This document shows positions 30,941 to 33,257 of a stretch of DNA of 64,000 nt, one piece after another. This DNA comes from Octopus sinensis (lineage: Eukaryota). The stretch spans positions 79,794,001-79,858,000 of the forward strand of contig NC_043000.1 in the NCBI RefSeq assembly GCF_006345805.1. Reading direction: 5' to 3'. A program made the position numbers and the translations under genes. The notes beneath the pieces were generated by a model. That model ran no database searches. It saw only the letters and a list, made by a program, of their open reading frames with translations, and had not been told where the DNA came from. Within the stretch, counting starts at the first letter, position 1. Each line of letters opens with the position of its first letter.

Positions 30941-31222
30941 ATATACATATATATATATATATATATATATATATATATATATATATATATATATATATAT
31001 ATATGCATATATGTATATATATATATATATATATATATATATATAATAAATATTAGGGAATAAATCCAAATTTACAGGGAAAAAAAATCAGATTTAGGAT
31101 TAAATCCAATTTTATAGTAAAATATTATAAAATATTATTAGAGACAAAACCACTATTTTGCAAAACAAACAAGGAAAGACTTAATCAATACATAAAACTT
31201 TAATAAATAGTCAAAAAAACCG

Positions 31223-31265
31223 CCACTACAATCGTTTCTTGTCTTGATCGACAATCTTCAGGTGG
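31223..31265 (-). ncRNA. Type-I hammerhead ribozyme (mirror copy)
   Basis: Exact reverse complement of 31911-31953. Confidence 0.85.
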
Positions 31266-31910
31266 ACTTCAAATTTTTCTGGAGTCTGAGTCCATTTTTT
31301 ATACAAATTGTTCTCAAACATGCTGTTGTATTACATATGTGAGCCTTTTAATTCATAAGTGAAGGCAATGATTTTTTCGTTATTAGCTGATGATTCTCAT
31401 TTAATTAATTGAGAAAAAGACGTCTATCTCTGTATGAATTTTTTTTTTTTTTCTGACATGGAAGAACCTTTAGAAATTCATTTTTATCAGAAATCGTCAC
31501 AACTATAATGTATACATACGTGTGTGTGTATAAATAGCTGGTTAAGACGCCAAAGACATAAAGTTCAAACACAGGAAGTTAGAAAACGATTTTTCTAACT
31601 TCCTGTGTTTGAACTTTATGTCTTTGGCGTCTTAACCAGCTATTTATACACACACACGTATGTATACATTATAGTTGTGACGATTTCTGATAAAAATGAA
31701 TTTCTAAAGGTTCTTCCATGTCAGAAAAAAAAAAAAATTCATACAGAGATAGACGTCTTTTTCTCAATTAATTAAATGAGAATCATCAGCTAATAACGAA
31801 AAAATCATTGCCTTCACTTATGAATTAAAAGGCTCACATATGTAATACAACAGCATGTTTGAGAACAATTTGTATAAAAAATGGACTCAGACTCCAGAAA
31901 AATTGGAAGT

Positions 31911-31953
31911 CCACCTGAAGATTGTCGATCAAGACAAGAAACGATTGTAGTGG
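31911..31953 (+). ncRNA. Type-I hammerhead ribozyme
   Basis: CCAC-CUGAAGA-UUGUC(GAUCAA)GACAA-GAAA-C(GAUU)G-UA|GUGG. All core nucleotides are intact and the predicted cut is after 31949. Confidence 0.85.
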
Positions 31954-33257
31954 CGGTTTTTTTGACTATTTATTAAAGTTTTATGTATTGATTAAGTCTT
32001 TCCTTGTTTGTTTTGCAAAATAGTGGTTTTGTCTCTAATAATATTTTATATATATATATATATATATACATATATATATACATATATATATATACATATA
32101 TATACATATATATATACACACACACACATATATACACTAACACACACACATATATATATACACGTACATACACATATGTATGAGTAAGTGCATGTATATA
32201 TATATATTTGTGTGTATGTGTGTGTGTATGTGTGTGAGTGTGTGTATATATATATATATATATGTATATATATATATTTGCATGTCTATATCTGTTTATA
32301 TGTATATCCATAACTTTAGATTTGAGTGGATTTGGTAGATGGAAACTGAAAGAAGCTCCTCTCATATATATATATATCATGCATATATGTCTATATATGA
32401 TGCATATGTGTCTACATAACTACGTCTATTTTTCACTGCCATTTAAATTTCTATTTGTTTATATGTATATGATTATACTGCTGGGCACCTGTGAATCTTT
32501 TTACTTATGCATGCACTTATATACACTGATTATATAGACACATGCATAAGTCATTCGATATATTCTTTTCTATATGTTAGCATCTATAAGTGTGCATGCA
32601 TATATATATGTGTATGGATAAGTATGTATATATATATATGTGAGTATGTGTGTGTGCATATGTAAATATATGTGTGTATATATGGTTGTGTGTGTCTGCA
32701 TATGTATATGTATATATATATATATGTATGTGTCTTTATACAACTATGTATGCGAGTGTGTATGCATGTATGAATGTGTTCACTCCAGCATGACCACAGC
32801 CACATGGTTGAATGGATAAAAGAATATATGTATGTATGTGTGTGTGTGTGTGTGTGTGTGTGTGTGTGGGAAGGCTCAAGCTCAGTGGTTAGAACGTTGG
32901 GCTCACAATCATGAGGTAATGAGTTTCATTCCCAGACTGGGCTCTGTGTTGTGTTTTTGAGCAAGACATTTCATTTCACGTTGCTCCAGTTCACTCATCT
33001 GTAGAAATGTCACTGGTGCCAAGCTGTATTGGCCTTTGCCTTTCCCTTGGATAACATTGGTGTCATGAAGAGTGGAGACTGCCATGCAATGAGTAACTGC
33101 TGATCTTCTATAAACAACCTTGTCCAGACTTGTACATTGGAAGGAAACTTTCATGACTGAAAGAGTTTGATTTGGTTTCTGTGCTACTTTAAATATATAT
33201 TCTGTTGTGTCTGGGGAGAGTCATTTTCTTTTTGTGCCTTATAATTTAACACACTCA

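Follow-up and report, generated by a model that had tools for sequence, protein, structure and literature searches.

PLE insertions typically carry an inverted, 5′-truncated copy of the element, a one-sided tail of 30-40 bp and microsatellite targets (PMC8557442, PMC8969392), and the inverted 5′-truncated copy and one-sided tail have also been described for Penelope families of Adineta (PMC3846280). Among PLEs, the Hydra clade is defined by a CxCx5C linker, by CxxC and CxH motifs around the catalytic E and N, and by RT phylogeny (PMC8557442); Penelope-13_HM has an inverted 5′ copy and shows the hammerhead motif on both strands (PMC8557442 supplement). Pairs of minimal hammerheads lying 100-700 bp apart on opposite strands have been attributed to truncated PLEs, and were inactive as monomers and weakly active as dimers (PMC4209133). 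Only one PLE protein has been purified (PMC11167929). Predicted to be dimeric, it introduces nicks into both strands of AT-rich DNA, extends them, and initiates reverse transcription at two internal positions separated by the length of the tail; insertion was normal with hammerhead mutants. Fold-back self-priming has been proposed for rotifer elements (PMC3846280), and retrozymes are organised as head-to-tail tandems (PMC7229834; 10.64898/2026.07.22.740005).

We analysed a 64-kb stretch of DNA (the window) containing a near-perfect palindromic insert with two hammerhead motifs (Table 1). Our reading, to which we give a probability of about 0.83, is that the insert is a young 5′-truncated PLE insertion, probably a member of the Hydra clade, which targets (TA)n, and that a single integration event likely laid down its 3′ non-coding end as two head-to-head copies. 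A preliminary description of the locus had instead taken it for a non-autonomous, ribozyme-processed retroelement.

Table 1. Coordinates of the focal insert, of the second copy of its family and of neighbouring elements within the window.
Feature	Position	Strand	Remarks
Left (TA)n target remnant	30947..31045		from sequence
One-sided 3′ tail, ~80 nt, long arm only	31046..31125	-	outer end common with the 38633 copy
Two 40-nt degenerate direct repeats of the tail	31052..31131		70% alike
Left arm	31126..31586	-	outward-reading 5′-truncated copy of the element's 3′ end
Minimal type I hammerhead motif, left arm	31265-31223	-	predicted cut after 31227
Spacer CGAT, 4 nt	31587..31590		head-to-head junction; 5′ truncation point of both arms
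Right arm	31591..32050	+	inverted copy without tail; end in register with short arm of second copy
Minimal type I hammerhead motif, right arm	31911-31953	+	predicted cut after 31949
Right (TA)n target remnant	32047..32094		from sequence
Neighbouring palindrome, other family	30709..30942		73-nt arms (73/73 identical), 13-nt spacer, two outward hammerhead motifs
Relic A, decayed Hydra-clade-like PLE	28554..30570	+	RT and GIY-YIG remnants; hammerhead motif, then (TA)n
Relic B	15625-17291		93% like relic A over 1.7 kb; inverted 5′ piece at 15343-15626
Relic C, decayed Hydra-clade-like PLE ORF	~24300-25400
Relic D, decayed Hydra-clade-like PLE ORF	~38010-38586		ends in hammerhead motif
Second, shorter copy of focal family	38633..38967		no hammerhead; tail 38633-38710
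Arms of second copy	38711-38836 / 38842-38967		122/126 identical, 5-nt spacer

The two arms are reverse complements; their alignment has 459 identical columns out of 460 and, in a homopolymer run, a gap of one base. With the 4-nt spacer and TA tracts on both sides, this confirmed the inverted arms of about 460 bp between (TA)n tracts reported earlier, and the single substitution between the arms agrees with the youth ascribed to the insert. Because that substitution (31271/31905) falls just outside the ribozyme motif, the motifs of both arms are identical. Treating the insert as a plain palindrome was right for the mirror arms and overlooked its asymmetry: some 80 nt at the left end have no partner on the right. 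The claim that the insert is non-coding also stood, the longest stop-free stretch being 58 codons and the longest Met-started one 31. The tailed (main) copy is cut down to 541 nt, in which no ORF remains; a telomerase-like RT/GIY-YIG ORF is absent from the insert, as expected after 5′ truncation. No target-site duplication could be read at the insert flanks. A TATA-like box oriented toward the centre was discounted, since one such box per strand in an arm of 70% AT is about chance level.

Near-perfect mirror symmetry about a 4-nt loop, between low-complexity tracts, is also what a fold-back artefact of library preparation or assembly would produce. However, the site at which the mirror ends is specific to the family and recurs at another locus, one substitution separates the arms, and the sequence becomes unique again on either side. 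The window also contains older palindromes of this design, whose arms mismatch by 3-13%. On these internal grounds an artefactual origin of the palindrome is unlikely, indeed very unlikely. The stretch or part of it was contained in 20 of the 22 sequencing runs listed. Four DNA runs held 0.66-0.86 of the sampled words, and represent three organism labels and two studies, the best of them possibly being the source sample; the other 16 had less than half of the sampled words and were not used. These matches show that the sequence exists in independent DNA, not that the focal centre junction does. No RNA run was among those listed as containing the stretch, an outcome that carries no information on expression.

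Comparison with the second copy of the family was informative about how the palindrome arose. Outer end and short-arm end of this copy are in exact register with those of the focal insert, so that two fixed outer ends 80 nt apart recur in both copies (2/2), and the centres differ. The arms are more alike within copies (459/460 and 122/126) than between them (132/145 over the shared part). These differing centres, and the greater likeness of the arms inside a copy, make an inherited palindromic unit unlikely. From the two copies in the 64-kb window (n=2), it thus seems likely that every insertion makes its mirror half anew, both 3′ ends staying fixed while the 5′ end varies. Subsequent gene conversion might also increase the identity of arms inside a copy, although the different centres would not follow from it. 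Beside the centre of the second copy lies about 45 nt of AT-rich sequence (38796-38839) unrelated to the focal arm, at a place where the focal copy instead continues toward the hammerhead; it may mark a distinct subfamily or be DNA picked up at the junction.

Different centres were also found in the two palindromes of a third family (48528-48637 and 19716-19863). These are small inserts (48514-48637 and 19716-19863), one of which retains a hammerhead core (48582). Spacers in the six palindromes measured were 4, 5, 13, 6, 23 and 17 nt long.

The same comparison bears on the idea of a MITE or foldback DNA transposon inserting at TA, which would inherit its long inverted repeats as a unit. Such an element would show the long inverted repeats, TA flanks and lack of an ORF observed here, and palindromic DNA elements are known, as with Harbinger in frog (PMC5625713). 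This origin is nonetheless barely credible: the ends are asymmetric by ~80 nt in 2/2 copies, the centre varies, arm likeness is higher within than between copies, and the hammerhead has the build found in PLEs.

Several hallmarks of an EN+ PLE insertion are present. Both copies contain a head-to-head inverted, 5′-truncated copy, upholding the earlier recognition of this arrangement as a PLE feature, and a one-sided tail with two fixed 3′ termini (2/2); the focal insert has a type I motif near the 3′ end, and 5′ truncation differs between the copies (n=2). (TA)n flanks the focal copy on both sides and the second copy on its left, although insertion into (TA)n is a Naiad trait as well and therefore not diagnostic of the Hydra clade.

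A single PLE integration could generate this structure as follows. The GIY-YIG endonuclease would nick both strands of an AT-rich target, as extrapolated from PLE biochemistry (PMC11167929), and each nick would prime reverse transcription on element RNA, one from an outer internal start site to give the tailed arm, the other from an inner one to give the short arm. Both copies would stop at the same place, where the RNA fragment ended or synthesis was blocked; a tiny spacer would then link their 3′ ends head to head. This two-primer route, which we consider to have about an even chance of being correct, accounts for the two fixed ends and for the symmetric but variable centre. Fold-back self-priming of one cDNA, to which we assign roughly one chance in three, explains the symmetric centre and, less easily, the fixed short end; other routes make up the rest.

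Each arm carries a complete, outward-reading hammerhead motif, as first noticed, with a helix I of 4 bp, the core CUGAAGA, a helix II of 5 bp closed by a 6-nt loop, GAAA and a GUA triplet. Conserved core and helices I-III occur in order, and the helix III segment is self-complementary when G-U pairs are counted. Assignment to the PLE-type minimal type I hammerheads was supported by a build matching published Hydra-clade motifs. A strict motif scan retrieved only the two focal motifs from the 64 kb, and none from Markov simulations of the window (30/30). With a relaxed descriptor, seven hammerhead motifs were found in the window (null mean 0.03, maximum 1; 0/100 simulations reached 7), a null that is optimistic because the descriptor was tuned after motifs had been spotted by eye. 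The hammerhead covariance models proposed as a check gave no support: at gathering score Rfam returned no hammerhead family in the 64 kb (0 matches of any family), and at E 10 the 75 and 4 weak matches included no hammerhead and were mostly miRNA models on hairpins or microsatellites. The ribozyme call consequently rests on motif anatomy and not on a covariance model. As to covariation, the motif is identical in both arms and missing from the second copy.

Folding calculations indicated that the motif is poorly suited to act alone. When 0-320 nt of upstream sequence was included in local folds, helix I had a probability of 0.00-0.29, and fold energies of the isolated monomer were no better than those of shuffles (z 0.48 to -0.70). 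When two 43-nt motifs were cofolded, the unconstrained best structure was a double hammerhead (-21.4 kcal/mol, versus -5.4 kcal/mol per monomer fold). The focal hammerhead is therefore predicted to fold poorly by itself and to be functional only when two RNAs of the same sense dimerise, in line with the dimer dependence suggested previously; as the two focal motifs are on opposite strands, one transcript cannot supply both. A read-through transcript folds in the model into one duplex (-773 kcal/mol) with probabilities of 0.000 for helices I and II. Any such transcript is thus predicted to lock the hammerhead within a ~460-bp duplex, which would also make it the long dsRNA anticipated in the preliminary description.

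The term 'ribozyme-processed' found no support. The insert ends 101 and 181 nt beyond the cut site, its motifs occupy opposite strands, and cleavage was dispensable for insertion in the one PLE tested in vitro (PMC11167929). On our reading, the hammerhead is a passenger at this locus.

Four decayed PLEs in the window (relics A-D) provided a reference for what an ORF-bearing element looks like at its 3′ end. The GIY-YIG domain of the relic A ORF obtained a Pfam E of 1.8e-4, just under the curated cut-off, and an endonuclease profile built from 149 of the 150 best relatives of relic A detected four relics, near 15.6-17.2, 24.3-25.4, 28.6-30.2 and 38.0-38.3 kb. Pfam named 0/10 of the endonuclease relatives, a PDB sequence search gave no match, and the sole result of an Atlas search was an RT lead for relic A. 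Hydra-clade motifs were recovered piecemeal, CxxC..E in relics A, B and D, CxH in A and D, and CxCx5C in C; by eye, relic A follows the published Hydra RT alignment. In relics A and D the stop codon is followed, after 281 and 210 nt respectively, by a homologous hammerhead motif and then by (TA)n. These motifs have a long helix II insert and a palindromic helix III; one of the two lacks helix I and the other has a core change. Relics A and D serve as a positive control, from within the window, for an arrangement of non-coding sequence, hammerhead, short run-out and (TA)n, which the focal arms share (324 nt before the motif and 101 or 181 nt after it).

Each copy of the focal family is located within or beside a (TA)n run that follows a relic of the A/D type (30570-31046 and 38586-38633). 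With 42 merged (TA)n tracts in the window, this two-case placement may reflect chance or nested targeting. The palindrome of another family at 30709-30942 has a ~75-nt tail on its right, facing the focal tail across one (TA)n tract, and its motif is close to the published Hydra-2_aMil motif (PMC8557442 supplement).

Layout apart, the relics could not be linked to the insert. DNA similarity between the focal arms and the 3′ ends of relics A, B, C and D did not exceed the maximum of 100 shuffles, and the neighbouring ORF relics were accordingly rejected as a demonstrable parent. The arms did not match the 149-relative endonuclease profile, and the best tblastn result had an E of 0.047 over 16 aa; hand translation had hinted at residual coding sequence in the arm, which neither method supported. 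Because the arms show neither relic similarity nor an endonuclease match, the clade is deduced from layout and neighbours. No parent ORF was found within the 64-kb window. A pattern scan for relatives yielded none in viral contigs and none in prokaryote genomes; among metagenome contigs it gave 45 matches, 0/45 with helix I and helix II both of at least 3 bp and none BLAST-similar to the arm.

These results have to be weighed against the possibility that the insert is a dedicated non-autonomous PLE derivative, akin to a retrozyme, in which a short RNA with a fixed 5′ end is likely mobilised in trans by PLE protein and the palindrome forms at insertion. The arm is without coding remnant and without DNA likeness to the ORF-bearing relics of the window, and each copy is found within or close to (TA)n that follows a Hydra-like relic. 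Moreover, pLTR sequences suffice for mobilisation in trans (PMC3846280), and retrozymes have been proposed to be PLE derivatives (10.64898/2026.07.22.740005). However, retrozymes are head-to-tail and their unit ends at the cut site, whereas the focal insert is head-to-head, with ends 101/181 nt past the cut. The centres also differ in 2/2 copies. The 324 nt preceding the motif lack an ORF, as 5′ truncation would have it; their length is similar to that of the 3′ non-coding sequence (210-281 nt) separating stop and motif in the ORF-bearing relics. A dedicated non-autonomous derivative is hence quite unlikely, and a 5′-truncated copy of an ordinary PLE fits better than the non-autonomous, ribozyme-processed element originally envisaged.

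A more elaborate version, which we consider unlikely but worth stating, would be a dedicated non-autonomous PLE family with a doubled RT start region (two 40-nt units), on whose single RNA a dimeric PLE enzyme primes from both target strands. Each insertion would then be a near-perfect palindrome locking its own ribozyme in duplex, and may seed the genome with long dsRNA for A-to-I editing.

Several other repeats were recorded in the window. A lone minimal hammerhead motif (core 22373) is found in a short insert on the minus strand (22239-22470), which ends in (TA)n and sits between direct repeats of ~130 nt (22103-22239 and 22462-22589). A decayed palindrome beside a microsatellite (3165-3540 / 3707-3837; 154/175 identical) is possibly the same kind of insertion, and older inverted-repeat pairs are located at 10114-10353 / 10787-11059 and 21427-21532 / 21956-22061. 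We also identified the remnant of a Tc1-like DDE transposase (33450-34421, minus strand; Pfam DDE_3), a LINE with an RT domain (54279-56644, minus strand; Pfam RVT_1), another LINE-like fragment (18719-19204, minus strand) and a ~750-bp direct duplication, 98% identical, in a microsatellite-rich context (58798-60268), which may be an assembly duplication.

As a clean, young example of a known integration footprint, the insert is of use mainly for annotation, palindromes of this sort being easily taken for MITEs, miRNA hairpins or assembly errors. A family whose two ends are fixed at a distance of 80 nt while its centres vary could also serve to separate the two-primer from the fold-back route using genome data alone. 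In a cephalopod host, such inserts could further add to the unusual abundance of near-perfect dsRNA reported for that group (PMC5625713).

How the insert relates to described systems can now be stated. Retrozymes of the non-LTR type are similar in being non-coding, in having a type I hammerhead and, for those of animals, in being AT-rich repeats of a few hundred bases. In contrast, the focal insert has no head-to-tail tandem (no long direct repeat of the arm was found in the window), no cut-site ends, no canonical tertiary contacts and no same-strand motif pair. With the minimal PLE hammerheads of Cervera and De la Pena 2014 (PMC4209133) it shares a short helix I, a palindromic 15.2-16.2 region, the lack of evident contacts between loops 1 and 2, and dimer dependence (predicted for the focal motif); its motifs start 646 bp apart, inside the range of their opposite-strand pairs. 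It differs from them in a small helix III with a 4-nt palindrome-like loop, and in a first helix II pair that is U-A or, in a Hydra-style reading, G-C after a bulge.

Hydra-clade PLEs (Penelope-13_HM, Penelope-1A_NV, Hydra-1_Obim; PMC8557442 S1, S2) have the (TA)n preference in common with the insert, and their motifs likewise combine a short helix I, an extra base after the core, a helix II of 4-5 bp and a short, near-palindromic helix III. The distance from motif to 3′ end, as calculated from the supplement, is ~25-350 nt in these elements, compared with 97 and 177 nt here. The clade is set by protein motifs, whereas the insert has no protein and the neighbouring relics are not demonstrably its parent. 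Six short motifs from the focal locus and its neighbours were not found in the accessible PMC8557442 supplement, where line breaks could mask a match. The focal family appears undescribed in the openly searchable literature.

The closest likeness is to EN+ PLE insertions (Craig et al. 2021, PMC8557442; PMC3846280), which share the head-to-head inverted copy, the one-sided tail, the microsatellite target and the lack of a readable target-site duplication. Unlike their tails of 30-40 nt, the focal tail measures ~80 nt and consists of two 40-nt repeats, and the main copy is itself only 541 nt long and ORF-less. The apparently doubled tail, together with the ~75-nt tail of the neighbouring element, is the only departure from the PLE pattern of the papers cited here, and makes the insert a mildly unusual member of it.
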